62,896 nucleotides of DNA, filler included, from Nitrospinota bacterium (GCA_022562795.1; 5 parts of 5 records of this genome joined end to end with filler, not necessarily neighbours in it), one strand, 5' to 3'. Numbered from the whole stretch's first letter, positions 1 through 57,960 are shown. Translations and numbers: made by a program. The notes: generated from the sequence alone by a model not told the origin.

Positions 1-1609
1 CCATAACGTGGTCGGGCCGCTCGATGAGGGTGAGGGCCGTCCCCGTGATGGCGCCGTCGGTAAGGCCGGTGCACTCAAGGGAATCGTAGAGGCCGTCGCC
101 GTCAATCGTGACGGGTGTAGCGACCACCGCGTCGGCGCCGGCAGGGGCGCCGGGGGCGGTCACCACGTAGATGACCACTAGCCAGAGGTCGTAGATGCGC
201 AGGCCAAACCCGTCGTCGGGCCGAATCTTCACCTTGACGATTCGATCCAGGGCCGCCCATGATGTCGGGGCCCCCCAGGTCATCTCGGTTATCGCGGCCT
301 TGGGTGAGATTCTGATGCCGTCGATGTAGGCGTCGTTCTTGTTGACGATGTAATTGGTCTCCTCGTACTGGTAGTTGCAGTGGTAGGTGGCTGAGACTAT
401 CTCGCCCGAGTTGGCCAGGGGCCCCCAGTCCTTGAATCTGATCTGAGAATATTGACCGAGCGGGGGGGCGCCCCCCCACGTGGTGCGGTTGGAGTAGGCA
501 AAGGTCGTCTGGTCATCGACGCCCAAATCGTAAGCCTTGACATCATCCAGCCACGAGCCGGGATTGTCGCTCCCCGTCTCATCGTCCGCCGTGGGCTTTT
601 CGTTGTCGGTCGTCTCGCCCGTCTCGTGCTGATGCCTTTGAATTATCGCCGGGGTGTTGAGCTTGAGGCTGACGACCGAGGAGCCGGGCAGCAGGGCGGT
701 GTCTTTCAAATCGAGCGTGTACTCGCCAGCCCCCAAAGCGGTCCCCGCGACGCGGACGCGGCTCACCGTCTTCATCGGGAACGCGGGGCCCAGGTAGGTG
801 TATTCGGTCTTCTTCTCTATCACCGCGCCGCCCCGGTTGTGGAAGACTGCCGTGGTGGAATTCTGGGCGCGCGTCAGCCCGGTCAAGTCGTCGCCGCTCT
901 TGCCCGTGTAAGCTATCTCCTCCTGGCCGACGATGACGGTGCTGCTTGATGGGAAGCGGGTGGCGTCGGAGAGCTCCAGCGGGCCGGTTGAGGCCGATGT
1001 GATGTAGGCCCTGAGCAGGCTCCTCGCCCCGGCGTCGACGGGGTAGACCGGGACATCCTCGACCGTCCCTATGATTGGCCCGCAGACGCGCCCGATCGCC
1101 TCCGGCGCGGCGTTCGGGAAGTCGGTAGTGTTGATTTTATAAAGCGGGAGTGGGTCGCGCTGCGCCATCTCAATCCCGCTCACGATGACCTCAACGGTAT
1201 CGGCGGTGATGGAGGCGGCCTCCTCGGCCTGGCCCACGAAATCGGTGATGAGGTCTGCCGAGGCGTCGGCGCCCTTCATCCACCACTTTATCGTCACCGT
1301 GGCGAAGGCTATCGGGTGGGAGATGAGAAGGTCGGAAAAGCGGGAGAAGCCCGCAACCGTCTTGCTGTTAGCGAAAGAGAGCCTAAGCTCGCGGGGCTCG
1401 TTGGTCTTCGAAAAATCGTCGAAGCCGCCGACGACATCGGGCAGCTCCGTAAGCAGGCCCAAATAATCGTTCCCATCGGGGGCCGAGCTTATCGATTGGT
1501 CCGAGACGCGGATCGTCAACCCGTCGGCAAACGCGACGGTCACGAGAGCCCGCGCGTCTATCCCCCGCATCAAAGATTGGGCCATTGCTGGCGCGGTCAG
1601 GGTTTTCAA
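1..1609 (-). CDS. Putative tail tip/hub protein, 3' end outside the window (>530 aa)
   Basis: Not in the ORF track. Manual translation is open from TTG 1609 (MKTLTAPAMAQSLMRG; alternative ATG 1585) to base 2 (...LTLIERPDHVM). It lies after the tape measure and distal-tail genes. Confidence 0.7.
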   Translation of the reverse strand, partial: MKTLTAPAMAQSLMRGIDARALVTVAFADGLTIRVSDQSISSAPDGNDYLGLLTELPDVVGGFDDFSKTNEPRELRLSFANSKTVAGFSRFSDLLISHPIAFATVTIKWWMKGADASADLITDFVGQAEEAASITADTVEVIVSGIEMAQRDPLPLYKINTTDFPNAAPEAIGRVCGPIIGTVEDVPVYPVDAGARSLLRAYITSASTGPLELSDATRFPSSSTVIVGQEEIAYTGKSGDDLTGLTRAQNSTTAVFHNRGGAVIEKKTEYTYLGPAFPMKTVSRVRVAGTALGAGEYTLDLKDTALLPGSSVVSLKLNTPAIIQRHQHETGETTDNEKPTADDETGSDNPGSWLDDVKAYDLGVDDQTTFAYSNRTTWGGAPPLGQYSQIRFKDWGPLANSGEIVSATYHCNYQYEETNYIVNKNDAYIDGIRISPKAAITEMTWGAPTSWAALDRIVKVKIRPDDGFGLRIYDLWLVVIYVVTAPGAPAGADAVVATPVTIDGDGLYDSLECTGLTDGAITGTALTLIERPDHVM

Positions 1610-1646
1610 AGGCTATGCCTTTCTATCTACCAGGGTAGCTGGCTAC

Positions 1647-1697
1647 TGCGTTAATGGCGCTCGATACAGCTTCATTAGCTGACGAAGCACCGTGGCC
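1647..1697. repeat. 51-bp intercistronic motif, copy A
   Basis: 39/51 ungapped identity to 6209-6259. Confidence 0.75.
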
Positions 1698-1715
1698 TAC
1701 GAGGTAGCCTGCTAC

Positions 1716-2477
1716 TCAATTCGCTTCCCGAAGGTTCAGCTTGATGTTCCAGCGCCCATCGCTCGCCAGAACGACCTGAACGGGCCTAACCAGCTCCATC
1801 CAGTACCGGCTAGTGGACGCGTCCAAATCCCAAAACCAAAACGGCTTTAAGCTGTCGCCGCCCGCCGCCTCTTCGGCGAGTAGGGTGTCCTTGAAGCTGG
1901 TCGGGACGTTGGCGACCTCGATCCGAAGGGTCTTTTGCGTATTGCCCCGCTTGGCTTTGAAGGCGGCGCCCGACGGGCCGCGTAGGACGGTTATGTTAGG
2001 CGCCTTGCCCAAGGCCGCCCCGAAGCGATAATTGCGCTCGAAGGTCTTCTGCTCGGTGAGAAAGAGCTCTCCCACCTCCGGGGCGCTCGAAGGGGCCGTG
2101 ATGCGGAGCCGCCAGTAGCGTTTCGTGAGCGGGCCTCCCGAGACGCTGAGCTCTATCGTCCCCGCCGCCGCGACGAAGGAACCCGCTCCCCCGTCGTAGC
2201 CGCTCCAGACCGCGTTGTCGGGGGAGTGCTCCAGAAAGCAGGTGAGGCCGGTCAGGTTGTGGCCCGCGATGAGGGCTGTATCGACCTTGAATGCGCCAGA
2301 GGCGCCTTGATCTATGTTGATGGCCTTGTCTCCCGAGGCGTCCGCCGCCTTCCAGGGGAAGACGAGGTCTCTGTCGTAGAGGTGCTCCTTCGGGTTTCCG
2401 GACGCGGCATCGGTCACCGTCACGACGGCGCCGCTCTGCTCCAGGAGGTTGGCGAAGGCGAATTGGACGGTGGGCAT
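1716..2477 (-). CDS. Putative distal tail protein
   Basis: 253 aa, beta-rich, directly after the tape measure; RBS GGGGAGGGGG. Function inferred from position. Confidence 0.55.
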   Translation of the reverse strand: MPTVQFAFANLLEQSGAVVTVTDAASGNPKEHLYDRDLVFPWKAADASGDKAINIDQGASGAFKVDTALIAGHNLTGLTCFLEHSPDNAVWSGYDGGAGSFVAAAGTIELSVSGGPLTKRYWRLRITAPSSAPEVGELFLTEQKTFERNYRFGAALGKAPNITVLRGPSGAAFKAKRGNTQKTLRIEVANVPTSFKDTLLAEEAAGGDSLKPFWFWDLDASTSRYWMELVRPVQVVLASDGRWNIKLNLREAN

Positions 2478-2510
2478 TAGGCGCTACCCCCTCCCCGTCC
2501 CATGTTGATG

Positions 2511-2540
2511 GTGTCGGGGTCAGGGGCGACCCCGACTACC
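2511..2540. repeat. REP-like palindrome, family B (GTAGTCGGGGTCGCC...ACCCCGAC)
   Basis: GTAG foot plus hairpin; relatives near 6157, 11091, 12130, 23520 and 29737. Confidence 0.75.
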
Positions 2541-2553
2541 CATATAGGCTGCA

Positions 2554-3282
2554 TCAGGCCGCCCCCCTTCTCTGGTGGCGGGCGACGACCTTGGCTATCT
2601 GGCGGCCGTCGAGGTTGACCGGCACCACGATCGTAATCTCGCTTCCTCCTCCGCCCTCCCTCGCAGCGAGCTCGTCGAAGGCGCGCTGGACCTCGGGAGA
2701 GCGCTCGGCCCGGCTGAACGGGACGACGAGCTCGGCCTGGCCCCTCTCGCTCGTCATCAACAGGGTCGGCTGGGTTGTGACGGCGCCGTGCTGGGCGATA
2801 CCTATATTGGAGAACTGAGCGTCGAATCGGGCCCTAAGCTGCGCCCCCGTCAGGGCGGTCGTAAAGCTAACTGCGCCGAACTCGCCCAGGGCGGATGCGG
2901 CCCGCCGGGCTGACGCCACGATCCGGTTTAGGGCGGCGGTGGATTGATTGATCGAAGAAGCCATCTTGCTCTGGGCGACTGCCGCCTGTCGGGAGACCTG
3001 ACTTATTGCTCCTAAGGCCGACGCAAGGCGGATCGCCTCGACCGTCTCCCCGGCCAGCGCGTTGGTCATCTGCTGGAGCGCGGGGGATGCGGCCTTGATG
3101 GAGGCGGCCAGATCGATGGCCTCGAGCGACCGCTTAACGTTCGTCCCTACGACGCTGATTCTCTGGAGCGCCTGCGAGCCACGCTCGCCCAGACGGGCCA
3201 GGGCCCGCTCGGCCCTGACCGAGGCGCTGGAGACCTCCTCCCGGCCGGTTATTTTAAGGCTGACTTCAAAGGCCTGCGCCAT
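2554..3282 (-). CDS. Short tape measure protein
   Basis: 242 aa, Ala-rich helical. N-terminus FEVSLKITGREEVS and C-terminus SERGQAELVVP...VPVNLDGRQIAKVV are typical of tape measures. Follows the chaperone pair. Confidence 0.75.
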   Translation of the reverse strand: MAQAFEVSLKITGREEVSSASVRAERALARLGERGSQALQRISVVGTNVKRSLEAIDLAASIKAASPALQQMTNALAGETVEAIRLASALGAISQVSRQAAVAQSKMASSINQSTAALNRIVASARRAASALGEFGAVSFTTALTGAQLRARFDAQFSNIGIAQHGAVTTQPTLLMTSERGQAELVVPFSRAERSPEVQRAFDELAAREGGGGSEITIVVPVNLDGRQIAKVVARHQRRGAA

Positions 3283-3949
3283 TACCTCTTCATCCTCTCT
3301 TCAAGCACGTCCGCTACGACTATCTCCAGCAGGGCCAGGGAGCGCCACTCGGCGTGAGTGAGGTCGTCGGGGCCGAACCTGCAGCCCGCCTGGATATGCT
3401 GGCGTATTTCCATAATGTGAAGCGCCCAGCCCTCTGCTCCCCCTGAGGCGGACTGCTCCTCGCCCTTCGCTGCGTCAAGGGGGCAGTCGTCGCAACCTTC
3501 TGCCTCGATCCTCCGCTTGATACAGACATCTTCACCGGGGCACTCCCTGCCTTCTAAGATGCGCCGGAAGGCGCATGCAAGTTTTTTCCCAACTCCTCCT
3601 GATCCTCTGCGGCCACGGCGCTCGATGCCGCTACCGCCTCGACCTTGTGGAGGAGGGGCACGTGGGACTTCCACTCGGAAATCTCGGGCGTGAGCTCCTT
3701 GCCCTCGATGGTGTAGCCCTCTACGCGAACCGCTGTCTGGTCCCAGAGCCATTCGTCGGCCTCGGCCGGGGAGCGTCGCAGGGTCGCCTTGCCTCTGCGG
3801 ACCTCAAACTCGCTCCGCATCCGGCTGTAAGTCCGAAGCTCCGAGGCGGCGGGCTCACGCAGAACGTGAACTAGCCGGTGCTCTTCTCCGCCCCGCTCGG
3901 CGACCAGGTGGATTCTCGTCTCTTGCCAACAGCCTACCTCGTAGCTCAT
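3282..3949 (-). CDS. Tail assembly chaperone GT, -1 programmed frameshift product
   Basis: Slippery G GGA AAA AAC at 3590-3581 moves the 3949-3554 ORF into the -1 frame (KKLACAFRRILEG...MKR), ending at 3282. Confidence 0.75.
3554..3949 (-). CDS. Tail assembly chaperone G
   Basis: ATG 3949 (MSYEVGCWQ) just after the tube stop; ends ELGKNLHAPSGAS. Confidence 0.75.
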   Translation of the reverse strand: MSYEVGCWQETRIHLVAERGGEEHRLVHVLREPAASELRTYSRMRSEFEVRRGKATLRRSPAEADEWLWDQTAVRVEGYTIEGKELTPEISEWKSHVPLLHKVEAVAASSAVAAEDQEELGKNLHAPSGAS

Positions 3950-3959
3950 ATCGGCCCCC

Positions 3960-4988
3960 CTAGGCCATGTAGCTGGCGATGTTGTTGCGCACTGTAATGT
4001 CGAGCGGGTAGCCGCTCGTGGCGTCGTGGAAGACGTTCGCCTCGATATCGTAGACCGCCATGCCGTCCTCAAAGCCCATGGGCAGGGCCCGGTATGAGAG
4101 CCGGGGAAGCGTGATGGTGAGAGTGTGCTTGTAAGCGCCTTCGATGGCAGCCCCAACCGCCGTTATGATGGCCTTCAGGTAGTCGCCTGCCTCGAGGTGG
4201 TCGCGCTCGACGGCGTCGGCTACGAGCAGGCGGAAGGCGAGCTCGACCTCCCGGCGCTTTCCGTACTCAAGCCGGCCCCTGTAGAGCCCGCTGCCGGGGA
4301 AGTAGCCGTCATCTTCCATCGGGTTGTTGGCGACCGATAGGTTGAAGCTCTTAATACGGGAGGAAACGTCCACCTCGCTACCGGTCGGGCCGACTTGGAA
4401 GGTCACCCCGTGCATGCGCAAAAAGCTGCCGGCCGTCACCGACGGCATGGCGAGCGTCGAAGTCTCCCTGTATCCGCTGCCCACCAAATTCACTTTTAGT
4501 TGAAGCCGCCCCGGGCTCTCTGCGGAAATCTCGAAATCGGCGACAGCCAAGTCCCGATACAGGCTTTTCAGCGCAGCGCCGCTGGTGGCCTGCTCGACGA
4601 GGGAGGTCACGGGGAGAGAAACGGAGCTCGTAATGAAGCGGCACTGGTGGTCGTAGGTGTTGGGCGCGCCGACGCTGTCGGGCTGGGATGTGGTCACCTG
4701 GCCCAGTCCGAAGGCCGCCGCCCAGCCGGCCATGAGCGAGGTGAGATCGAAGTTGCGGGTTACTCGGACGTCCCACCGCTCGATCTCCTGCGACTCCGGG
4801 AATCCGCCTGAGGCGACCCCCCGCCCTGCCTGCTCTGAATCTGTCTCGACCGTCGGCGTCCTCACCACCACGTCGGGCCCCTTGAAGGGGGTCGCGAGGG
4901 TGAGGTCGGCGTCGGCGAGCTTCGTCCCATAAGCCGACTGCTTCTTCGTGGAGAAAGCCCAAAGGACGTCAAAATCGCGCTCAGACAT
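3960..4988 (-). CDS. Major tail tube protein (non-contractile type)
   Basis: 342 aa between gp37 and the chaperones; RBS GGAGGAGG; beta-rich (IKSFNLSVANN, LTITLP). Confidence 0.7.
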   Translation of the reverse strand: MSERDFDVLWAFSTKKQSAYGTKLADADLTLATPFKGPDVVVRTPTVETDSEQAGRGVASGGFPESQEIERWDVRVTRNFDLTSLMAGWAAAFGLGQVTTSQPDSVGAPNTYDHQCRFITSSVSLPVTSLVEQATSGAALKSLYRDLAVADFEISAESPGRLQLKVNLVGSGYRETSTLAMPSVTAGSFLRMHGVTFQVGPTGSEVDVSSRIKSFNLSVANNPMEDDGYFPGSGLYRGRLEYGKRREVELAFRLLVADAVERDHLEAGDYLKAIITAVGAAIEGAYKHTLTITLPRLSYRALPMGFEDGMAVYDIEANVFHDATSGYPLDITVRNNIASYMA

Positions 4989-5068
4989 ACATTACCCCTC
5001 CTCCGCCTCGGCGTGCTCCCTTCCCGTATGGACAGGGCGGCCAGGGCCTTCTTAAGGCAAGGCTGCCC

Positions 5069-5542
5069 CTACACAGGAGTAAAATCGACGCTGATTTCAT
5101 ATGTCGCCTCGTAGATTGAAGCATCCCTGGTGTTGATCACGAACCGCTCGGCCACGGGCTCGGGCGGGCCGACGTCCAGGCCCAGGGACTTATTGGCAAT
5201 GAGGCCCCGAACATCCCGGAGCATCTGGTAGGTCCCGGTCATTTCAACGTCACCCCGCCTCTGGGCTTTTTCCCCTCGGAGGTTCCGGGAGGCCACGACC
5301 ACCAGGAAACGCATCGTCTCGTCGTAGACCCCCTTGGCGGACTTGGTATAGCGGCTTGAGTCGTAGACAACGAGCAGGGCGGGGAATAGCTTCAACACCC
5401 GGCTCAAGTCCTCGTCCTCGAGCTCGCCCTGGTAGCTGTCCACGATGCGTGCATAGCCTCCCCCGCCCACCGGGCCGATGGGGGCCGCGTTTATGGCTGC
5501 CAGGATCGCGTCTTCGACCTGCGTTATGGTCTCGTTAGCCAC
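5069..5542 (-). CDS. Mu gp37-like (DUF1834) tail terminator/neck protein
   Basis: ITQVEDAI, VDSYQGEL, PALLVVY, VASRNLRGEKAQR and GTYQML motifs. Confidence 0.8.
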   Translation of the reverse strand: MANETITQVEDAILAAINAAPIGPVGGGGYARIVDSYQGELEDEDLSRVLKLFPALLVVYDSSRYTKSAKGVYDETMRFLVVVASRNLRGEKAQRRGDVEMTGTYQMLRDVRGLIANKSLGLDVGPPEPVAERFVINTRDASIYEATYEISVDFTPV

Positions 5543-5552
5543 GTTGTTCCCT

Positions 5553-5625
5553 TGTAGGGACAGCCTTTAGGCTGTCCGGCCTTTAGTGCCCCAAGCCCGC
5601 GGACAGGGTGAACCCTGTCCCTACA
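5553..5625. repeat. REP doublet (REPIN-like), family A
   Basis: TGTAGGGACAGCCTTTAGGCTGTCC ... GGACAGGGTGAACCCTGTCCCTACA, matching the pair beside the RAYT gene. Confidence 0.9.
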
Positions 5626-5651
5626 CAGCTGATGACGACCCATCTGACACG

Positions 5652-6110
5652 CTAAATCCCACCCGCCAGGTGCTCCCCGACTATTCTGGCGATTACTTCC
5701 ACGTCGGACTTTTGGAAGACAAGATAGGGCCTGGCGGGGATTGTGGTCGCGTGGCCCCGCCCGGCCCGGCCACCGAACTGGTGTATCCGGGCGTATATGA
5801 CGTTCGATCCAACCGCGAGTTCATCTCGCTCCGCCCTGAAGGTGATGGAGCCCATAAGCCTCCCGGTATCGACCAGTAGCTTCGTCTTGGGCGCCTTGGC
5901 CTTGAGCGTCGCCGAAGCCAACGGTTTCCATCTCGTGGGCCTCCCTCCGGCCCTGAAGTTCTCCCTGATTGAGCGGAGCATGTGGAAGCCCCCGGCCCGA
6001 AGGGGGACGGTAAGGTCCTTCGCCCTTTCCCGGATGCCCCGCAGCGCGGCCTCTGCTCCGCCTAAGGCGGACAAGCCCTCAACGTTGATGTGGACCGAAA
6101 ATCCTGACAT
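5652..6110 (-). CDS. Phage virion morphogenesis protein (Mu gpG / tail completion family)
   Basis: WKPL, LVDTGRLMGSI, VGSNVIYARIHQFGG and IPARPYL motifs. Confidence 0.92.
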   Translation of the reverse strand: MSGFSVHINVEGLSALGGAEAALRGIRERAKDLTVPLRAGGFHMLRSIRENFRAGGRPTRWKPLASATLKAKAPKTKLLVDTGRLMGSITFRAERDELAVGSNVIYARIHQFGGRAGRGHATTIPARPYLVFQKSDVEVIARIVGEHLAGGI

Positions 6111-6156
6111 AAGATGTCCTCCAGGGACCGCATCGCGGTCCGTGGCCTTTCGAGAA

Positions 6157-6204
6157 GGTGTCGGGGTGCTGCAGGCAGCCTTGGCTGGCGACTCCGACTA
6201 CCCG
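6157..6204. repeat. REP-like palindrome, family B
   Basis: Near reverse complement of 11090-11136. Confidence 0.8.
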
Positions 6205-6208
6205 GACT

Positions 6209-6259
6209 TGCGTTAATGTTGCTAGATACAGTTTCGATTGCTGATAAGGCATCGTAGCC
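6209..6259. repeat. 51-bp intercistronic motif, copy B
   Basis: Matches 1647-1697; lies just 3' of the gp36 stop. Confidence 0.75.
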
Positions 6260-6261
6260 CC

Positions 6262-6708
6262 CTAAAAATTGTCCAGGGTGCCGGTCGTATCGCCTTTCTT
6301 ACTGGTGAAAACCCGATCCGCCTTCTTCCGCGTCGTCTGCACCTCCTCGTCGTGGGTCTCGGCCGGGGGCGCCTCTACGCCGAGCGACGCCTCGCCGCGG
6401 GCAAGCGCCTTGAGCAACTTTGTGGCGTCCTCGTAGCGCTTCGTGCGGACGGGGGCGTCGAGGTCTCGCCTCGAGTAGAGGTTGTAGATTGCGACATCCA
6501 CCGATAGCTTGCGGATCAGGCCGGGTACTGGGCTAAGCGGCACCGTGTAGCGCTCCTGAAGGTGAGAGTTGACCTCGTCGTCGGCGTCCGCGATGGCTCT
6601 GGCGACGACGTTTGAGTCCACCTGGCCCGCGCCGGAGTCGTCGGTCAGCTGGATAAGCTCGCTCTCAGAGAGCTGGTCCTCAATGTCCGACTGGGTAATA
6701 TAGGCCAA
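6262..6708 (-). CDS. Mu gp36-like (DUF1320) head-tail adaptor
   Basis: MAYITQSDI, ELIQLTD, AIADADDEVNSHLQERYTVPL, DVAIYNL, RYEDATKLLK. Confidence 0.92.
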   Translation of the reverse strand: MAYITQSDIEDQLSESELIQLTDDSGAGQVDSNVVARAIADADDEVNSHLQERYTVPLSPVPGLIRKLSVDVAIYNLYSRRDLDAPVRTKRYEDATKLLKALARGEASLGVEAPPAETHDEEVQTTRKKADRVFTSKKGDTTGTLDNF

Positions 6709-6711
6709 GGG

Positions 6712-7044
6712 TTAATCCTCCTTCAGCTCGCCCAATCGTTTCTCGGCGGCTCTAATGACCGTCCGGCGCCGACGGGTTGAGCTCTCCCAATCGAGAACGG
6801 CCTGCACGGCGACAGCATCCTCCAGGCCCTCGATGTGCTCTCTCAGCTCCCTTGCCCCAGTGGCCCATGTGGGCCCTTCTTGCTCCTCGACCTCTTCGAC
6901 GACGAGCCAGGGGTCGTTCAGGATGGCTTCGGTCATCTCCTGCTCGGCAAGGAGGACCGGCTCGGGCGTGAAGGCCCTGCCGCTTCGCCGGTAGAGGCCA
7001 CTGGGGTGGCTGGCTCTGAGAGAGGTTTTATACGCGCGATTCAC
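6712..7044 (-). CDS. Mu gp35/HI1506-related small head-associated protein
   Basis: LYRRSGRAFT...AILNDPWLVVEE, between capsid and gp36. Confidence 0.65.
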   Translation of the reverse strand: MNRAYKTSLRASHPSGLYRRSGRAFTPEPVLLAEQEMTEAILNDPWLVVEEVEEQEGPTWATGARELREHIEGLEDAVAVQAVLDWESSTRRRRTVIRAAEKRLGELKED

Positions 7045-7066
7045 GATTGCAATCTCCCTATAAGCC

Positions 7067-7999
7067 TTATACGAAGGTAGTCAGCACGGCGTTTTGCCAC
7101 AGGCCGTAGCCGACGTTGTAGCGGGCTTCGGCGCCGAAAAACATGTGCTTTCGCATGAAGCGCGCGTAGTCGACGTCCTCGCCCTCCCTGACGCCAACCT
7201 GGAGGAGCTTGACGGCCTCTCGCATCTGGAAGATGAAGGGCTTAAGGAAGGTATCGGTCTTGAAGAGATACCACTTGGCCCCGGCCGTCAGGTGCGGGTT
7301 GACGATCAGGTCGGCCGCATCGCTGAGGATGTTGGTCTCGCCACCGCTCAAGGTATCTTGCTTGAGCGTCTTCTCCGCCACGCCCCACAGCGCCGGGGGA
7401 ACCATGACGAGGAGCCCCGATTGAGCCTCTTCGTGGAAGGGCTCGCCCCTGTCGTCTTTGAAGAGCGCCAGGACGACTCTGGTCGCATCGAAGGCGGCCG
7501 CAAACTCCGCTTGAGTCACGGCGTTTGGGTCGGCGGCGTTGTAGGTGCGGTCGTTATCCTGCGTGCCGCTCTCGCCTTCGGAGTGGTCGGTGTCGAAGAA
7601 GAACTGGCCGTCGTAGCAGAGCGTGGACTCGCCGTCTTTGATAAGCTGGGAGACGAGCTTGTTGGGGTGGACCTTCGCCCGCTCGGCCAGGTCCTGGACG
7701 CGAATCTGAATCGCTCCTATCTGGTCGTCCTTGAAGGCGTTCCTATCGACTGCGATCGTGGACTCCCAGTCTTTGTTGACGATGGTGTACTGGTGGTCGA
7801 GCAGCCCCTTGGGCACCCGCTCGTCTTCCCACTCCCGCATGGCGGGGGCGCTTCCGAGCCAGCCGTACTTCTCCTGTGAAGAGCTGCTCGGAACCTCGGT
7901 GGCTATCTTCGGCCAGAAGGCCTCGGCCGAATGGTAGGCGCTAAGGAAGTGCGCCTGGAGGCCCTTGGTCACTACAATTGGACTGACAACGTCGCCCAT
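7067..7999 (-). CDS. Mu-like major capsid protein gpT
   Basis: YGWLGSAPAMREW, YTIVNKDWESTIAVDRN, CYDGQFFFDTDH, KPFIFQMR, ARYNVGYGLWQ. Confidence 0.95.
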   Translation of the reverse strand: MGDVVSPIVVTKGLQAHFLSAYHSAEAFWPKIATEVPSSSSQEKYGWLGSAPAMREWEDERVPKGLLDHQYTIVNKDWESTIAVDRNAFKDDQIGAIQIRVQDLAERAKVHPNKLVSQLIKDGESTLCYDGQFFFDTDHSEGESGTQDNDRTYNAADPNAVTQAEFAAAFDATRVVLALFKDDRGEPFHEEAQSGLLVMVPPALWGVAEKTLKQDTLSGGETNILSDAADLIVNPHLTAGAKWYLFKTDTFLKPFIFQMREAVKLLQVGVREGEDVDYARFMRKHMFFGAEARYNVGYGLWQNAVLTTFV

Positions 8000-8020
8000 G
8001 ATTTGTCACCTCCCTTGTGG

Positions 8021-8527
8021 TTAAGCGTTCAGCAGGGTTTTAAGCTCGTTGATGAGGTCGGCCTCAGGCTGGCCGTAAGTGGCGTCGGCGTTGGCGACCA
8101 GAGCCGCAGCTCTTCGCTCGAACGCCGGCTCGATGTCGATCCAACCCTTGGTGGCCGAGACGTATTCTGCGAGACGCCCGGCCATGATGCCGTTGGTGCC
8201 GGTGGCGTCGTCGAAGGTCTGGTCGTCCACGACGTACATCATCGAGCCGACCATCGCCTGGGTTATGGAGCTGGCGTCCAAGAGGAAGACGCCCTTCCGA
8301 TAACACCGGCACTTGACGGCCCCGTCGGCTCCGGCCGAGTTGTCTTTCTTCTCGTAGGCCACGAGGCCGCCTCTAAGGTTCGCCGCATCCGAGGCGGGCA
8401 CCAGGTAGCCTCCTGAGTCGATGGCTACTAAGGCCCCCTTGTATATTGTGGTTGCCCCCTTCACAGGAATGGCCAGAAGAACGCCATCCTTGCGGTCTGT
8501 TTCCCTGTTCTGTGTCAGTGCTGCCAT
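8021..8527 (-). CDS. Capsid decoration/cement protein
   Basis: MAALTQNRET, TIYKGALV, DNSAGADG, YVVDDQT; located between protease and capsid. Confidence 0.8.
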   Translation of the reverse strand: MAALTQNRETDRKDGVLLAIPVKGATTIYKGALVAIDSGGYLVPASDAANLRGGLVAYEKKDNSAGADGAVKCRCYRKGVFLLDASSITQAMVGSMMYVVDDQTFDDATGTNGIMAGRLAEYVSATKGWIDIEPAFERRAAALVANADATYGQPEADLINELKTLLNA

Positions 8528-8612
8528 GCTTTACCCTCCTCTCCGCTTCAGGCGTATAATTGGCGCCGAAAAAGGCCTCACCGGCCCGCCTGAGGCGTCC
8601 GCCTAAGGCGGT

Positions 8613-9707
8613 CTAGGCCTCCTGGTGGTGGTGCTCGGAGCGGGCTAACTCCTCCAGGCTCACGCCCATCTTTACGAAGTCGGCCCTGTTCTTCTCATAG
8701 AGCCGGACGACGCTCTTTGGAACCCTGATCCGCTCCTCGCCATCCCCGAAGGTCACAACGTCGCTCGAGGCGCCAGCATCGGCGGCGACCTCGCTCAAAG
8801 GGACGGCGGAGCCTGCCTTACGCGCCTCGTAGGTTTTCATGAGCCGGGCTCTGGGAGTCGCCTCTTCGCCTTCGTCGAACGTGACCAGACTGGCCTCGTC
8901 GTCGGGCAGAGCGAGCAGCGTGATTTTTAGATCCTTGGCCTCGGCCGGGGTGGCCTTGCCCTGGGAAACGAGGCCCTCGCAGAAGGCCGCCACCTCGCGC
9001 TCGGCGGCCTCGGCATAAAGCTTCGCGATGCTCTCTTCGAGCTCGGCGGCACTTCGCTCGGCCCTGAAGGCCCGCTCCTTGAAGGTCGCCGCCTCCTGGT
9101 CCTTTTCCTTCAATTGCTCCTCGAAGCGTTTGGTGACCTCGGCGACGGTTTCCTCTACGACCTTCGCGACCTCGGCCTCGCCGAGCTTTTCGAGCCTCTC
9201 GTTGTTAGTTGTGCCCATCCGGTCCTCCTCCTCGGCTTGTGTAAGCTGCTTAAAATCCACCGTCATAGACGGCCCGCCGCAGCCCTGGCCGCCTGCAGCG
9301 GCTGGATGGGGCTCGGCCAACTTAATGGGCTCCAGGCCCTTGACGGCGGGGACCGCCGCTCCGAGCAGCGCGACCCTTTTCAGGTACTTTTTGCCCGTGC
9401 CCTGGAAGTCGAGGTAGACCTCGGCGCTTCGGTGCTTGTAGCGGCCCGAGCTGACGAGCTCCTTTAGTTCGGCGGGGACCTGGGATATGCGCGCAACCAG
9501 CGTGTCGCCGAGCCTTTTAAGCTCTTTCACCCACCCGTAGGCAGGGCCGCGGTGCTCCTCGCCCGGCGGGGCGTGGTCGAGAACGAGCGGGGCCTCATGT
9601 AGCAGTGGGTCGTAGGCCCGAGCAATCTCCTCCAAGTCTTCCATGGTGATCTCCCCCTGCGGGTAGCTGCCCGCCCGGGAGATTTCCAGCTCCACTAAAT
9701 CTCTCAT
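8613..9707 (-). CDS. Prohead protease/scaffold (Mu gpI-like), probable internal scaffold start at 9218
   Basis: APLVLDH, PAYGWVKEL, YKHRSAE, VALLGAAVPAVKGL; coiled-coil C-terminal half; in-frame ATG 9218 with GAGGAGGAGG RBS. Confidence 0.88.
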   Translation of the reverse strand: MRDLVELEISRAGSYPQGEITMEDLEEIARAYDPLLHEAPLVLDHAPPGEEHRGPAYGWVKELKRLGDTLVARISQVPAELKELVSSGRYKHRSAEVYLDFQGTGKKYLKRVALLGAAVPAVKGLEPIKLAEPHPAAAGGQGCGGPSMTVDFKQLTQAEEEDRMGTTNNERLEKLGEAEVAKVVEETVAEVTKRFEEQLKEKDQEAATFKERAFRAERSAAELEESIAKLYAEAAEREVAAFCEGLVSQGKATPAEAKDLKITLLALPDDEASLVTFDEGEEATPRARLMKTYEARKAGSAVPLSEVAADAGASSDVVTFGDGEERIRVPKSVVRLYEKNRADFVKMGVSLEELARSEHHHQEA

Positions 9708-11044
9708 GGCTCGCCCTCCCTGTAATCGTAGATCGCTCTTTGGCGCTTGGGCGGCCTCTCGGCCAGCGAGGCGCCGGTCCCCTCATGCGGGGCGGGCTCC
9801 CGCTCCGAGCCCCCTTGGGGGGATGGGGGCGGCGTCACCAGGGCCTCGCCCTCGGCCGGCGGCGGTATCCTGTAGCGCTCGTAGAAGTAGCGCGAAGAGA
9901 CCGGCAGGCCGATTCTAATAAGGCGCTCGTCGCGCTCGCTCAGGGCCTGGAGGTCCCCGATCTCCTCTGCGTGAATCTTGAGACGGGGGTATTCGGAAAT
10001 TCCCGTAAAATTGAAATCGACGAGCCAGGGGATGAGCTGCTCGTTGACGGTGGCCTCGAGCGAGGCGGCGTCGGCCTCGAGGATGTCCTGGCGCACATGG
10101 GCGTGGACCATCCCCAAGGCCTGGGTGCCGTGGCGCCCCTCGCCGCTGGTGAGCGTCTGGCCCAGAATGGCCTTCGCAACTTGAGAATCGAGGTACTCGC
10201 AAAACTCCTGGTAGGTGTCGACGCTTCCGCTCCGGGTCGCCTCCAGGAGCTCGATGACCATCCCCTGCGGGATGACGACGGCGCTATCGGTCTGGATCGC
10301 CTCGCAGGCGCTCAATAGCTCGTCCTGCTTGTCGCTCTTGGTCCCTTCGGGGTACTTGCCGATGGCTGTCGGCATGCCGAACTTCTCGGCGAAGATGACC
10401 CAGAACTTGATGACGTTCTTCTTAAACCACCAGTGCCAGTAGACGCTTTTTAAAACCGCCTCGCCGTAGGGGTTCTCGTATCGACCCCCGTGGCGGTGGA
10501 CGATGAATTTTCGAGGCGGCAGCGCGATCCCCTCATAGGAGCTCTCGGTGGTCAGAAGCCGAAGCTCGCCTCCCGGGCCGAAGACGAACCGGTCCTGCTT
10601 TCTGCTCCTTATGTCGCTGATGGCTACCCTGCCTCCCTGCGCCTCCCAAAGAATTTCGCTAACCGAAAAGCCCTTGGGGACGGCGTCGAGGAGGCTATTC
10701 AGATCCTCGTCGAATCGGGGCACCTCGGCGAGGGCGAGCCGGACGAAGTCCGCTATCTCAATATCTCTTTGAGACTGCGAGGCGGGGACGATCTCGCGCT
10801 CCTTGCTCATGACCCCGAGCCTGCGGGTCTGCAGCAGCGAGGCGATCTGTGGGTCCTTGTCCTCCATCTCGTCGTAGAGGTCGTAGCCCCTGCCGGCAGC
10901 CTCGCGCGAGAGCACCTCGTCGGGGTTGGAGAGGATTCTGCCTACAAAGCCGCGCGTGATGTCCCGGCCGGCCGTCGCGATCTCTTCGGCCTCGGGCTTC
11001 GCCCCGCCTGAGGCCGATTCCTTGAGCTCAACAACATTCGTCAT
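9704..11044 (-). CDS. Portal protein (Mu gp29, DUF935)
   Basis: LYDEMEDKD, LLDAVPKGFSVSEILW, FAEKFGMP, KAILGQTLT, ALGMVH. Start reassigned to ATG 11044 with AGGAGAG RBS. Confidence 0.95.
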   Translation of the reverse strand: MTNVVELKESASGGAKPEAEEIATAGRDITRGFVGRILSNPDEVLSREAAGRGYDLYDEMEDKDPQIASLLQTRRLGVMSKEREIVPASQSQRDIEIADFVRLALAEVPRFDEDLNSLLDAVPKGFSVSEILWEAQGGRVAISDIRSRKQDRFVFGPGGELRLLTTESSYEGIALPPRKFIVHRHGGRYENPYGEAVLKSVYWHWWFKKNVIKFWVIFAEKFGMPTAIGKYPEGTKSDKQDELLSACEAIQTDSAVVIPQGMVIELLEATRSGSVDTYQEFCEYLDSQVAKAILGQTLTSGEGRHGTQALGMVHAHVRQDILEADAASLEATVNEQLIPWLVDFNFTGISEYPRLKIHAEEIGDLQALSERDERLIRIGLPVSSRYFYERYRIPPPAEGEALVTPPPSPQGGSEREPAPHEGTGASLAERPPKRQRAIYDYREGEP

Positions 11045-11158
11045 GTTGCTCTCCTGTACGGACGAGGTTTGACTCTGTCCGCCACACCCCGGGTAGTCGG
11101 GGTCGCCAGCCAAGCCGCCTGCGGCACCCCGACACCTTTTCCCATTCGCTAAGAGAGG

Positions 11159-11237
11159 ATTATCAAAGAGCAGGGGGGCTTGTCGTCACGTACTTCCCGT
11201 ACTTCCTTTACTTCACGAATGGAGAGCGATTTTTTTG
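11159..11237 (-). promoter_or_regulatory. Putative activator-dependent promoter of the virion operon
   Basis: Minus strand: three GAAGTA repeats at 9-bp period, then ACGACA-N16-GATAAT. 11171-11237 is 62/67 identical to 29937-30003. Confidence 0.55.
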
Positions 11238-11280
11238 TTTTTTATGGTTTTTTGGTGCGGAATCAGCCAAGTAAACGGGT

Positions 11281-11457
11281 AGTAGGGGGGCCGAAAGCGG
11301 CCTTGGCCGCCCGACTACCCGGTATTATGCTGTAGGGACGCCCCTTGTGGGTGTCCGGGCTTTAAGGCGCCGATCCGCCCTTCATACCCTCGGACAGGGT
11401 AAGCCCTGTCCCTACAAAGGCACACGACGGTGTAGGGACAGCCTTTAGGCTGTCCGC
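11281..11457. repeat. REP cluster upstream of RAYT
   Basis: GTAGGGACGCCCCTTGTGGGTGTCC, GGACAGGGTAAGCCCTGTCCCTAC, GTAGGGACAGCCTTTAGGCTGTCC. Confidence 0.9.
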
Positions 11458-11497
11458 ATGTTAGTAATAATTTCCGCCACCCCGACGTCTTGTAGGC

Positions 11498-11980
11498 ATG
11501 GAATCCACTGCTCGGCCCAGAAGAAAATCCCCCCGCCTAGAGGGGTTCGATTATTCCGAATCCCGGTGCTATTTCGTCACCACCTGCACATTTCGGCGGC
11601 GTCGGGCGTTCACCGATGCTCGTTTGAATCAGACACTTCTTGCACATCTCCATGAACAGGCCAAGATTCACGGCGTCGTGCTCCACGCCTGGTGTCTGAT
11701 GACAGATCATCTCCACCTCCTTGTCGAAATGCCGGGTGATGGGCTTTCGCTGTCGGAATGGGTCGGGCGCTTTAAGGGCCACACCAGCCGAAGGGTCCGC
11801 GCGATGGGTTTCCGGGGATGGCTTTGGCAGGGGCGGTTCCACGAGCACATTCTCCGTCGGGAGGAAAGCATCGAGCGGTTGGCGGAGTACATCGTCCACA
11901 ATCCCGTTCGTAAGGGCTTGGTCGAGACGTGGGTTGAATATCCGTGGGCAGGGATGGGCATCGAAGACATCAAAGTGTAG
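11498..11980 (+). CDS. rayT: REP-associated tyrosine transposase (RAYT/TnpA-REP, Y1 HUH)
   Basis: RL.GFDYS, YFVTTCT, LMTDHLHLL (HUH), WQGRFHEHILR, YIVHNPV; flanked by GTAG REPs. Confidence 0.93.
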   Translation: MESTARPRRKSPRLEGFDYSESRCYFVTTCTFRRRRAFTDARLNQTLLAHLHEQAKIHGVVLHAWCLMTDHLHLLVEMPGDGLSLSEWVGRFKGHTSRRVRAMGFRGWLWQGRFHEHILRREESIERLAEYIVHNPVRKGLVETWVEYPWAGMGIEDIKV

Positions 11981-12180
11981 GGACAGCCTTTAGGCTGTCC
12001 GGATTTTATGGCAGCGACCTGCCCGTCTAACCCACGGACAGGGTAAACCCTGTCCCTACACGAGCACAAGACCATGTAAGGACGCTCCTTGTCGGTGTCC
12101 GGCCTTTAGGGCATTAAGGTCTGCTAGGTGGTATCGGGGTCAGGGGGTCGCAAGCGACCTTTGGTCGCCCGACTACCCGG
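11977..12180. repeat. REP cluster downstream of RAYT
   Basis: Family A doublet at 11977-12060 (the first GTAG overlaps the RAYT stop), a degenerate copy and a family B copy. Confidence 0.9.
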
Positions 12181-12646: not shown

Positions 12647-12768
12647 TTTTTCCGCGATTTTCCGCGATTTTCCGCGATTTTCCGAATATTTGAATCTCCG
12701 CTAGTTTTCGCTAATTTCCTCGAATTTCCGAATTTAAAATTTCCGCGAATTTCCGGGATTTTCCGAAT
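12647..12768. repeat. Tandem 10-mer array (CGCGGAAAAT)n, on minus strand
   Basis: TTTTCCGCGA x3 plus degenerate units. Confidence 0.85.
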
Positions 12769-12790
12769 ACCGACATGATTGTCGGAATTT

Positions 12791-12868
12791 TGGCGTCCCC
12801 GGCGGGATTCGAACCCGCGTTGCCGCCGTGAAAGGGCGGAGTCCTGGGCCAGGCTAGACGACGGGGAC
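12791..12868 (-). tRNA. tRNA-Glu(TTC)
   Basis: Cloverleaf, anticodon loop CT-TTC-AC, GGTTCGAATCC, CCA end. Confidence 0.97.
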
Positions 12869-12905
12869 GCCCGACGAAGGCCGATCTACAAGATCAAGGA
12901 GGGGT

Positions 12906-12981
12906 TGGTGAGCCGCGTAGGATTCGAACCTACGACCCACGGGTTAAAAGCCCGTTGCTCTACCACCTGAGCTAGCGGCTC
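12906..12981 (-). tRNA. tRNA-Lys(TTT)
   Basis: Cloverleaf, CT-TTT-AA, CCA end. Confidence 0.97.
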
Positions 12982-23912: not shown

Positions 23913-24012
23913 NNNNNNNNNNNNNNNNNNNNNNNNNNNNNNNNNNNNNNNNNNNNTTAATTAATTAANNNNNNNNNNNNNNNNNNNNNNNNNNNNNNNN
24001 NNNNNNNNNNNN
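23913..24012. other. Artificial contig linker
   Basis: N44-TTAATTAATTAA-N44. Confidence 0.99.
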
Positions 24013-29924: not shown

Positions 29925-30003
29925 AATATAAAAAAACAGGCGGGCCTGTCGTCACGCACTTCCCGTACTTCCTTTACTTCCCGAATGGGGAGCGATTTTT
30001 TTG
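29925..30003 (-). promoter_or_regulatory. Second copy of the virion-operon leader motif
   Basis: 62/67 identity to 11171-11237; ACGACA-N16-TATATT on the minus strand. Confidence 0.55.
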
Positions 30004-30054: not shown

Positions 30055-30154
30055 NNNNNNNNNNNNNNNNNNNNNNNNNNNNNNNNNNNNNNNNNNNNTT
30101 AATTAATTAANNNNNNNNNNNNNNNNNNNNNNNNNNNNNNNNNNNNNNNNNNNN
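30055..30154. other. Artificial contig linker
   Basis: N44-TTAATTAATTAA-N44. Confidence 0.99.
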
Positions 30155-35897: not shown

Positions 35898-37616
<1,719 letters not shown>

Positions 37617-37617
37617 A

Positions 37618-38013
37618 TTATGCCCCCTTGTAACCCTGTTCTCGTGCCTTCGACAAGGCGCGGTCACGAACAGAGGCCTCCCTGACGTCGCCGTCCGTCA
37701 GGCTGTTCAAACCGTAGATTTTCTTCATGCCTGCGAGCTCCACCAGGACCACCATACGCTCTTCCCCAGGCTCGAAACGAGTGCTGGTCCCTGATGGTAT
37801 GTTCAGGCGCATACCGAGGGCCTTCTCTCGATCGAACCTTAGGGCCTGATTTACCTCGAAGAAGTGGAAGTGGGCGCCTATCTGGACAGGCCGGTCCCCT
37901 GTGTTGGCCACTAGAAGTTCCTCTGTCCTGCGACCCTCGTTGACCACAATGTCGCCGTCGGCGGGAATGATCTCTCCAGGGACCAGGGGGGTAAGAGACG
38001 ATGAGCCGGACAT
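37618..38013 (-). CDS. ureB: Urease beta subunit
   Basis: [24 protein letters not shown]. Confidence 0.97.
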
Positions 38014-52792: not shown

Positions 52793-52892
52793 NNNNNNNN
52801 NNNNNNNNNNNNNNNNNNNNNNNNNNNNNNNNNNNNTTAATTAATTAANNNNNNNNNNNNNNNNNNNNNNNNNNNNNNNNNNNNNNNNNNNN
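52793..52892. other. Artificial contig linker
   Basis: N44-TTAATTAATTAA-N44. Confidence 0.99.
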
Positions 52893-57860: not shown

Positions 57861-57960
57861 NNNNNNNNNNNNNNNNNNNNNNNNNNNNNNNNNNNNNNNN
57901 NNNNTTAATTAATTAANNNNNNNNNNNNNNNNNNNNNNNNNNNNNNNNNNNNNNNNNNNN
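57861..57960. other. Artificial contig linker
   Basis: N44-TTAATTAATTAA-N44. Confidence 0.99.

Follow-up and report, generated by a model that had tools for sequence, protein, structure and literature searches.

Mu-like siphoviruses, such as D3112, B3 and RcapMu, have flexible tails and are either transposable or Mu-headed. Domesticated defective prophages kept under purifying selection are another point of reference, the concept reportedly being that of Bobay et al. in 2014. The third is RcGTA, for which the published accounts describe a multilocus 'genome' (PMC5026251) as well as experimentally shown particles, random packaging and host regulation (PMC5026251, PMC11841831). RcGTA resembles the locus described here in being a chromosomal phage-derived head-tail cluster under purifying selection; the present module is apparently not self-transferring, and the needed genes probably occupy more than one locus. 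In contrast, RcGTA is an HK97-type module with the terminase inside its main cluster, whereas the present one has a Mu-type head, the terminase outside, and is known from its genes alone. With domesticated defective prophages it shares truncation, retention in the species, intact ORFs and synonymous-rich variation, but it keeps a complete virion-structure operon instead of scattered genes and seems to have its cognate large terminase (TerL) at a second locus. An earlier sequence-only reading knew of no described gene transfer agent (GTA) with a Mu-type head; this agrees with a limited literature search, the main text of the GTA review PMC11841831 containing 0 occurrences of 'Mu-like'.

The window, i.e. 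the whole analysed stretch of 62,896 nucleotides, consists of five contigs joined via N...TTAATTAATTAA...N linkers. The host is an uncultured marine-sediment bacterium whose relatives bear the NCBI names 'Nitrospinae/Nitrospinota bacterium'. The module is located on the contig 1–23912, which ends within the tail-tip gene. Due to the concatenation, the sequence truly contiguous with the portal extends 12.8 kb upstream and no further, and the module is bounded at position 1 by the end of its contig, not by a window cut. The module (1–11044, minus strand) comprises 13 intact genes for a Mu-like head and a siphovirus-type tail with the portal gene first and all reading frames open, so the family matches of its ORFs bear out the proposed uninterrupted set of virion genes. 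The nearest sequence among Mu-like siphoviruses, with 72–76% nucleotide identity, is L001, an element on contig C177 of the sister genome G001. The likeness to L001 and to Mu-like siphoviruses includes the colinear Portal_Mu, gpI-like protease, gpT, gp36, gpG-like and gp37 genes followed by those of the tube, G/GT chaperone, tape measure and tip.

The portal (446 aa, 9704–11044) matches the full profile of PF06074 (1.2e-117) and is devoid of the MuF domain. Its start is ATG 11044, where the relatives align and an AGGAGA ribosome-binding site is present, and not TTG 11113. The protein aligns with residues 1–411 of the 732-aa portal-MuF fusion of L001 and ends 32 aa past the portal domain with a C-terminal tail common to short relatives. 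Its stop overlaps the protease start (ATGA, 9704–9707), as had been noticed, and a search of the window for MuF (gp30), either following the portal or fused to it, gave no match, in line with the claimed absence of gpF. The next gene encodes a Mu gpI-like head maturation protease/scaffold (8613–9707; phrog_976, 1.3e-54), which matches PF10123 with 28 bits at a cut-off of 25.2. It is followed by a 168-aa virion structural protein (8021–8527; phrog_1731, 1.5e-29), a Mu gpT-type major head protein (7067–7999; PF10124, 1.2e-68), a 110-aa protein conserved in L001 (6712–7044; 50% identity to a 135-aa ORF), a Mu gp36-like head-tail adaptor (6262–6708; PF07030, 9.8e-37), a virion morphogenesis protein of the Phage_tail_S/Mu gpG-like type (5652–6110; PF05069, 3.3e-27) and a Mu gp37-like neck or tail-terminator protein (5069–5542; PF08873, 7.6e-26). 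Hence the gp29-family portal, gpT, gpI-like protease/scaffold, gp36 and gp37 of the Mu-like head module are all matched.

The putative tail tube protein (342 aa, 3960–4988) is assigned by position; it is 78% identical to its counterpart in L001 and 45% in L009, has a weak match to phrog_290 and no sequence match in the PDB. The tail assembly chaperone (3282–3952) is formed by the G frame 3554–3952 and a –1 frame extension 3282–3752, with the slippery site G_GGA_AAA_AAC at 3590–3581; A_AAA_AAC and the extension frame are conserved in phase in L001. The tape measure (2554–3282) is indeed very short, 242 aa against 606 aa in L001 and 660 aa in L009. It aligns with residues 1–70 and 391–606 of the L001 protein, which itself has weak matches to tape-measure PHROGs, and so carries an in-frame internal deletion. 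The 253-aa distal-tail-like protein (1716–2477; weak phrog_8610 and phrog_9522) is homologous to L001 20452–21231. The last gene (2–1609), which is cut by the end of the contig at position 1, encodes the first 536 aa of a tail-tip or host-specificity-like protein with weak PHROG matches only, 67% identical to its homologue, a 761-aa ORF of G001:C177.

The 23.9-kb contig was found to contain no gene for terminase, lysis, regulation or MuF. Homologues of gp27 and gp28 terminase were found neither upstream of 11044 nor elsewhere in the window, and the terminase, early genes and MuF domain of the relatives gave no real tblastn/tblastx match anywhere in it. As for MuA/MuB transposase, repressor and ends, no early gene of the relatives matches the window, where the sole transposase-like gene found is a host RAYT; the reported lack of transposase, repressor and terminase thus holds within the window. 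Unlike Mu-like siphoviruses, the module has no adjoining gp27, TerL, MuF, GemA, lysis or early genes, contains host REPs between its genes, and has host tRNAs and metabolic genes at the terminase position. In this species everything upstream of the portal ribosome-binding site is replaced by a host REP/RAYT cluster (11284–12180, plus strand; repeats 11284–11470, RAYT 11498–11980, repeats 11975–12180), beyond which lie tRNA genes and metabolic genes of the host. The RAYT belongs to Y1_Tnp (PF01797, 1.3e-14) and is flanked by REPs on both sides, with further REP copies at 5.5, 23.3–23.8 and 29.8–30.0 kb, as in a REP/RAYT system. The genes of tRNA-Glu and tRNA-Lys (12791–12981, minus strand) belong to a host flank whose synteny extends to G001 and G003. 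REPs, RAYT and host tRNAs had all been recognized upstream of the portal. The supposed promoter-like leader (11171–11237) turned out to be one of the host repeats; another copy, 92.5% identical, is at 29937–30003, and G001 has three. The only sigma-70-like site here scores 9/12, which does not exceed chance, 3 such sites being found with 2.2 expected.

Three host repeat families occur far above chance (e.g., 8 copies of CCGCCTNAGGCGG with 0.02 expected). In the module they occupy six sites, 2508–2543, 5544–5628, 6058–6070, 6152–6205, 8599–8611 and 11089–11141. Four of these are intergenic, one is just upstream of the portal and one is in frame in an ORF, so host repeats do sit between and within the genes with the frames unbroken, as had been stated. 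Two of the six are polymorphic. The GACTACCC-type repeat at 2508–2543, between the tape measure and 253-aa genes, has 97% copies at two G001 loci; depth peaks sharply at it, and metagenome runs X11 and X15 have alternative joints 2477->2575. A REP hairpin pair at 5544–5628, between the gp37 and gpG-like genes, is missing from X11 (joint 5541->5649), and the corresponding gap in L001 is 1 nt. The in-frame site, inside the gpG-like ORF, is the 13-nt palindrome CCGCCTAAGGCGG (6058–6070). The GACTACCCGG-type repeat between the gp36 and gpG-like genes (6152–6205) is an inverted copy (89–96%) of that at 11089–11141, which begins 45 nt upstream of the portal start; 11084–11120 is absent from run X15 and from the nearly identical sequence L008.

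In L001, L009 and L002 TerL directly precedes a portal-MuF fusion of 689–746 aa, in L001 together with gp27, and the tape measures have 606–923 aa; therefore, the short portal and short tape measure are derived. Besides the complete MuF-bearing element on C177, G001 carries a second, fragmented short-form copy, with the portal end, protease start and same ATGA overlap on contig C467 (323 nt) and the short tape measure on C40. Both in-frame deletions (the MuF domain and ~360 aa of the tape measure) evidently predate the split from this copy of the sister species. The portals P0003–P0005 (75–76% identical) end in a homologous tail, and in this short-form sister lineage TerL seems to lie on the same contig as the portal, right before it; the lineage may be an ordinary viable phage. 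Of the stand-alone domesticated module envisaged earlier the long residence and maintenance stand, but the MuF-less form with a short tape measure is no hallmark of stand-alone modules. The sister genome has the short-form copy, but in G003 nothing matches the portal or TerL and the module is lacking, and at the tRNA-Glu locus of G001 there is no module within 2.3 kb. Identity at 4-fold sites is 0.54 for the module versus 0.62–0.72 in five of six host genes and 0.89 in UreC, and the portal tree is a trichotomy. The dS of the module to both G001 copies (about 0.9–1.3) exceeds that of host genes (0.15–0.74), so strict co-divergence with the host is not supported.

Comparison with the second copy in G001 over 1696 codons reveals no stops and gives dN 0.212, dS 0.926 and dN/dS 0.23; host genes have 0.06–0.22. 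In the relative-rate test, 81 changes are confined to the window and 77 to L001. L008 is 99.35% identical, ungapped over 5359 nt, with 16 synonymous, 15 nonsynonymous and 4 intergenic differences; the synonymous share of the coding differences (16/31) is above the expected 24.4% (binomial p 0.001). The best-supported differences in four metagenomes are synonymous in 25 cases, nonsynonymous in 10 and intergenic in 4 (25/35 versus 24% expected); across these two comparisons 52–71% of SNPs are synonymous. Nine sediment studies together yielded 20 runs with the truncated module (at least 74% of 31-mers). All four runs compared contain it with the same truncations, the portal/protease junction being bridged in 4/4 and the short tape measure in 3/4, and its depth is similar to that of the host flank. 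In run X10 the tape measure gene lacks 1 nt at 2844, close to the end of a contig. Among the contigs listed, the module has 2.7 times as many differences per base (214/27,894) as the adjacent host genes (62/21,944). The tail-tip gene is the most diverse (76 of the 214 in 5461 nt), with mostly synonymous SNP clusters, and in 4/4 runs the listed Logan contigs start in it at position 31. Many SNPs of the module are clustered, which fits recombination with circulating phages, and synonymous-rich variation could be imported in this way. These patterns indicate phage-derived structural genes under purifying selection in the host lineage, with diversity above the host flank. The proposed long-resident, maintained module, neither a fresh nor a rotting prophage, is consistent with the common truncations, synonymous SNPs, open frames, frameshift site and dN/dS.

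Six NCBI MAGs whose portals are of the window type apparently carry a TerL of the family as well, on other contigs, as judged indirectly by accession blocks and contig sizes. The TerL clusters P0153 and P0155 are 75–77% identical to the TerL of L001 and include members of 486–500 aa along with shorter or partial ones; in the six MAGs their accessions are within about 100–1100 of those of the portals. TerL clusters 3–5 have 30 members and portal clusters 1–2 have 31. Four members of the TerL clusters comprise just a C-terminal piece of 328 aa, and the gene may be broken in them. The TerL identities (P0155 versus P0152 78%, versus L001 76%) parallel those of the window portal (versus P0004 76%, versus L001 72–74%), which fits one co-evolving element. 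The location of the packaging genes elsewhere, as had been surmised, fits these findings.

The module may be regarded as an inert relic, namely a functionless deletion remnant of a Mu-like prophage, too young to decay and with its synonymous variation imported by recombination. The lack of terminase and MuF on its contig, the elevated diversity with SNP clusters (e.g., 137–179, 1328–1340, 10617–10670), the circulation of the related complete phage L001 in the clade, and a divergent portal fragment in X15 with loose ends at 10205 and 10332 are all compatible with it. Nevertheless, this explanation is unlikely: the deletions are common to a copy at dS ~0.9 with dN/dS 0.23 and no stops, the window branch shows no excess of amino-acid change, the repeat insertions leave the ORFs unbroken, and SNPs isolated by ~100 nt or more are synonymous in 12 cases versus 6 (hand tally, L008 and metagenome union).

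Even less probable is an ordinary complete prophage, with TerL and early genes just past the REP cluster and the portal-RAYT-tRNA join an assembly chimera formed at repeats, or with the remaining genes left of the contig end. The repeats do start close to the portal, no second assembly spans the region from portal to tRNAs (other REP copies form the end of L008, and the Logan contigs are interrupted in this region), TerL and portal in the window species are always on separate contigs, as repeats would cause, and the contig stops inside the tail-tip gene. However, the 23.9-kb contig continues beyond the repeats with 12.8 kb of host genes syntenic with G001 (tRNA-Glu, tRNA-Lys, aminotransferase, GH57), and in Mu-type order TerL precedes the portal and does not follow the tail. 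In one MAG a 328-aa TerL piece is on a 5317-nt contig and the portal on a 4873-nt contig; if the contig end cuts the gene, ~4 kb downstream of it would be free of a portal. We consider it similarly improbable that the module is a selfish remnant exchanging parts with, or complemented by, infecting Mu-like phages, with TerL from another prophage and selection acting on the phage gene pool and not on the host. The two forms of the element in G001, the clustered variation peaking in the tail-tip gene and the break of all listed contigs at one point there agree with such helpers. On the other hand, 10 NCBI-sourced portal clusters were checked; none belongs to the six MAGs, so they provide no second portal type, no other portal cluster has a comparable membership, and TerL identities track portal identities as in one element.

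The module is a maintained, split, phage-derived structural module. That 1–11044 represents the structural half of a Mu-like-headed, siphovirus-tailed element, maintained and split with its terminase elsewhere, and at or moving toward GTA-like domestication, is to our mind about an even chance. As the data show, the two in-frame deletions arose before the split from the sister copy, and the region upstream of the portal ribosome-binding site was exchanged in this species for the host REP/RAYT cluster, tRNA and metabolic genes. The 13 genes have stayed open with the programmed frameshift site kept and polymorphism mostly synonymous. The same genomes probably retain a cognate intact large terminase at another locus. 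With the terminase provided in trans, the module could still build short-tailed particles, and would represent a split, non-self-transmissible defective prophage at or nearing GTA-like domestication.

A broader proposal, that a new Mu-headed, short-tailed GTA-like viriform family exists in the uncultured Nitrospinota-labelled sediment lineage, with the head-tail operon (MuF-less portal, 242-aa tape measure) and TerL at separate loci under host-level selection and small particles packaging host DNA, seems rather doubtful at present. As hypothesized here from its genes, the module itself may have a GTA function: selection has preserved it despite its separation from the packaging genes, and it may therefore be a domesticated producer of particles.

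Thirteen genes follow one another without interruption on the minus strand, from 11044 to position 1, as a set of virion genes running unbroken from the portal, which is what the sequence-only reading had claimed. The portal gene (9704-11044; PF06074, E 1.2e-117) starts at ATG 11044, which replaces the previously assigned TTG 11113, and its stop does overlap the start of the gene for the gpI-like protease/scaffold (8613-9707). These are followed by genes for a virion protein (8021-8527; phrog_1731), the gpT major head protein (7067-7999; PF10124, E 1.2e-68), a 110-aa ORF (6712-7044), gp36 (6262-6708), a Phage_tail_S/gpG-like protein (5652-6110), gp37 (5069-5542) and a 342-aa tube-like protein (3960-4988), for which a PDB sequence search gave no match. 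The tail chaperone (3554-3952, with a -1 frame extension at 3282-3752) has the slippery site G_GGA_AAA_AAC, which is kept in phase, together with the extension frame, with L001, the closest relative with sequence in hand (25-kb contig C177 of the sister genome G001). The set is completed by the tape measure (2554-3282), a distal-tail-like protein of 253 aa (1716-2477) and the first 536 aa of the tail-tip protein (2-1609), cut by the contig end at position 1. The left-end Logan contigs, among those listed, start at window position 31 in all four runs. Because these starts and the end of the window contig at position 1 both fall inside the tail-tip gene, a branch point at 1-31 across the population is suggested, for example a repeat or a receptor-binding end that varies or inverts. 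Close relatives were not found in an IMG/VR scan with the tail-tip protein.

The module and L001 are colinear, with 72-76% of nucleotides identical. L001 carries gp27 and the large terminase (TerL) directly before a 732-aa portal-MuF fusion and also encodes a GemA homologue and an M15 peptidase. A more distant relative, L009 (portal 53% identical), has TerL and a 746-aa fusion, and the fusion of a further relative, L002, is 689 aa long. Relative to these three the MuF domain (~320 aa) is lost in the window. Also lost, relative to the relatives, are ~360 aa internal to the tape measure, in frame, and all sequence upstream of the portal ribosome-binding site. The tape measure, rightly described before as short, has 242 aa vs 606 aa in L001 and 660 aa in L009; at roughly 1.5 Å per residue a tail of about 36 nm would be predicted from it. 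The absence of terminase and gpF/MuF was likewise confirmed: the whole window yielded no sign of terminase, MuF or early genes. Judged by these comparisons, the short form (MuF-less portal and shortened tape measure) is derived relative to L001, L009 and L002.

The window is not a single piece of DNA: four N...TTAATTAATTAA...N linkers (23913-24012, 30055-30154, 52793-52892 and 57861-57960) separate five contigs from the same bin, and neighbourhood across the linkers is artificial. A contig end breaks off the tail-tip gene at position 1, and the DNA polymerase I ORF (52917-54449) is cut by another. The module lies on contig 1-23912, and genuine contiguity upstream of the portal extends for just 12.8 kb; this DNA contains tRNAs, a class IV aminotransferase, GH57 enzymes and tRNA-Asn. 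Moving upstream from the portal, host repeats come first, then a RAYT gene (REP-associated Y1 transposase; PF01797, 11498-11980), further repeats, a small ORF, tandem 10-mers, and tRNA-Glu with tRNA-Lys. The REPs, RAYT, small ORF and tRNAs named earlier are thus all present, and the promoter-like leader is not: it is a host repeat (11171-11237) with a 92.5% identical copy at 29937-30003 and three more copies in G001, and the single sigma-70-like site within it is no better than chance. Integration into tRNA-Glu was considered and set aside, as neither an integrase nor an att-like repeat was seen on the contig and the element belongs to a Mu-like family.

Several features of the host contigs were recorded in passing. 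Degenerate 10-nt units (TTTCCGCGAT-like, at least six copies) occupy 12649-12770 just before tRNA-Glu, and indel variants of this array occur in the metagenome run X15. A 625-aa ORF (15822-17699) between a GH57 gene and the following host gene is absent from the syntenic G001 contig C641. Its product has no match in G001 or G002, an uninformative negative; the ORF is an insertion/deletion difference between the host lineages of the window and G001. On the third contig (30155-52792) urease alpha (35898-37667) shares 98% protein and 96% DNA identity with G001, and five other host genes share 80-89% protein identity; the urease/urea-transporter contig was either exchanged recently between lineages or mis-binned. 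ARAGORN places two tRNA-SeC on one contig (31862-31955 and 45878-45965), at least one of which may be false.

Three host repeat families are shared by the module and by host intergenic clusters at 23.3-23.8 and 29.7-30.0 kb. The module gaps that hold the repeats measure 1 to 68 nt, or are overlaps, in L001, in which no REP or GACTACCCGG-type elements were found. Two positions are polymorphic: the REP pair 5544-5628 is missing in run X11, and 11084-11120 is missing in X15 and in L008, a near-identical IMG/VR contig of the truncated form. The repeats do not break module frames, in agreement with the initial claim; they lie in gaps, and a copy of the palindrome CCGCCTNAGGCGG inside coding sequence stays in frame. 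This pattern is consistent with a long residence during which repeats colonised the module again and again and insertions that broke ORFs were purged. Alternatively, REPs may prefer gene ends for mechanistic reasons. The 13-nt CCGCCTNAGGCGG itself has 8 copies in the window vs 0.02 expected (6058-6070 and 8599-8611 among them); it is also found in frame within coding sequence, at sites that differ between the window module and the G001 phage (L001 11550, 14997), and behaves like a tiny element inserted independently.

The short form is not confined to the window. Short portals whose C-terminal tail is homologous turned up in a protein search, at 93-95% identity for P0001 and P0002 (clusters of 24 and 7 members) and at 75-76% for P0003-P0005, and according to the cluster listings 76%-type pieces originate from G001 itself. 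A DNA search of G001 revealed a second, fragmented module copy over eleven small contigs. G001 contains, accordingly, two related Mu-like elements: the well-assembled C177, with TerL and the portal-MuF fusion, and a shattered short form (C40, C149, C172, C281, C369, C450, C467, C567, C661, C345, C485 and C561; 244-1539 nt). The portal end and protease start, with the identical ATGA overlap, lie on C467 (323 nt). In C40, tape-measure residues 1-59 and 170-189 match L001 residues 1-59 and 530-549, and this tape measure is therefore of the short form. Portal scans of genome and metagenome contigs returned no contig with P0003-P0005 or P0143. In the portal tree L001, the window group and the P0003-P0005 group form an unresolved trichotomy, a topology with which a single loss of MuF would be compatible. 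Both in-frame deletions are old and common to the window and the second G001 copy.

Because synonymous sites are saturated, ML estimates of dN/dS were unstable; NG86 and 4-fold-site identity were used instead. Between the window and the second G001 copy, 1696 codons contain 0 stops and give dN 0.212 and dS 0.926, i.e. a ratio of 0.23, which is non-neutral; the ratio for six host genes compared with G001 is 0.06-0.22. The divergence behind this value postdates the deletions, since both copies carry them. Within the species, L008 is 99.35% identical to the window over 5359 ungapped nt, with identical truncations; the 35 differing sites comprise 16 synonymous, 15 nonsynonymous and 4 intergenic, whereas a synonymous share of 24.4% would be expected among coding differences that arose at random (p 0.001). 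The best-supported 40 differences listed from four metagenomes (476 further differences exist) include 39 inside 1-11044: 25 synonymous, 10 nonsynonymous and 4 intergenic. In a relative-rate test with L009 as outgroup, 81 amino-acid changes are window-specific and 77 L001-specific, so that the window shows no acceleration; four other outgroups gave the same result.

TerL homologues were found at 72-80% identity to L001 TerL, and their identities run parallel to portal identities; close relatives were not found in IMG/VR scans with L001 TerL and P0155. Members of TerL cluster P0152 lie on contigs of 10,999, 8,523 and 4,478 nt, the sizes of the contigs with short portals P0143, P0147 and P0005, and the second TerL fragment of G001 (C281) is 98% identical to P0152. 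On these grounds TerL of the sister-lineage short form appears to be on the portal's contig, presumably adjoining the portal. In the window species the pairing was judged by accession numbers and contig sizes. The NCBI accessions of TerL clusters P0153 and P0155 fall ~100-1100 from window-type portal accessions in six MAGs, but the contigs (up to 42 kb) are not those of the portals, and in size they match none of the listed members of portal clusters at 70% identity or above. TerL clusters 3-5 hold 30 sequences, which agrees with the 31 in portal clusters 1-2; four TerL members are 328-aa C-terminal pieces that may or may not come from intact genes. As for a second portal, 10 further NCBI-sourced portal clusters were checked and none traces to the six MAGs, and no other portal cluster among the top 120 exceeds 8 members. 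We infer that the window species probably retains a cognate TerL at another locus.

At about an even chance, we favour reading the module as the split-off structural part of a Mu-headed siphovirus-type element, maintained by selection and unable to transmit itself. This part would have separated from its packaging half at the REP/RAYT cluster and may produce particles. Among the rival readings, an ordinary prophage whose assembly is chimeric or broken by repeats is rather improbable. The first 10 kb of the window are represented by 74-92% of 31-mers in 20 runs from 9 sediment/marine metagenome studies, one of which may be the source; no RNA run is among those listed. In four runs, one per study, contigs bridge the MuF-less junction in 4/4 and the short tape measure in 3/4, and module depth in non-repeat bins is about that of the host flank.

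An inert relic kept fresh by recombination is an unlikely reading, but several findings speak against simple maintenance. The listed contigs differ at 214 of 27,894 nt in the module vs 62 of 21,944 nt in adjacent host genes (2.7-fold), the tail-tip gene being the richest (76 of 5461 nt). Since many module SNPs are clustered, their import through recombination with related phages is likely, and this could bring pre-filtered variation. As for indels, X15 lacks 18 nt in frame at 9775, X2 has paired -1 and +1 changes at 776/784, and X10 has a 1-nt deletion at 2844, close to a contig end. Host-congruent descent, proposed as a check, is not evident, since module dS exceeds host dS: against either G001 copy dS is 0.93-1.27 and 4-fold-site identity 0.47-0.57, vs 0.15-0.74 and 0.62-0.72 for host genes (identity in five of six; UreC 0.89). 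Neither portal nor TerL was found in G003, the one other genome of G001's phylum that was searched, and no module lies within 2.3 kb of the G001 tRNA-Glu locus, where TatA-like and other sequence is found. A remnant linked to other phages is also an unlikely explanation.

Experimentally shown gene transfer agents (GTAs) are few; PMC11841831 names five lineages, the Rhodobacter, Bartonella, Brachyspira, Desulfovibrio and Methanococcus agents, and the term 'Mu-like' occurs 0 times in its main text. The statement that no GTA with a Mu-type head has been described stands to the extent that a limited, non-exhaustive literature search found none. If the module and a distant terminase still build particles, this would be an independent origin of GTA-like domestication from a Mu-type ancestor, and the host of the would-be Mu-type GTA is an abundant, globally distributed sediment bacterium. 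The steps of domestication could then be ordered through close intermediates: the complete MuF-bearing phage, the short form with apparently adjacent TerL, and the split short form. If no particles are made, the module would still be a clean case in which selection keeps a truncated prophage intact as REPs colonise its intergenic gaps.
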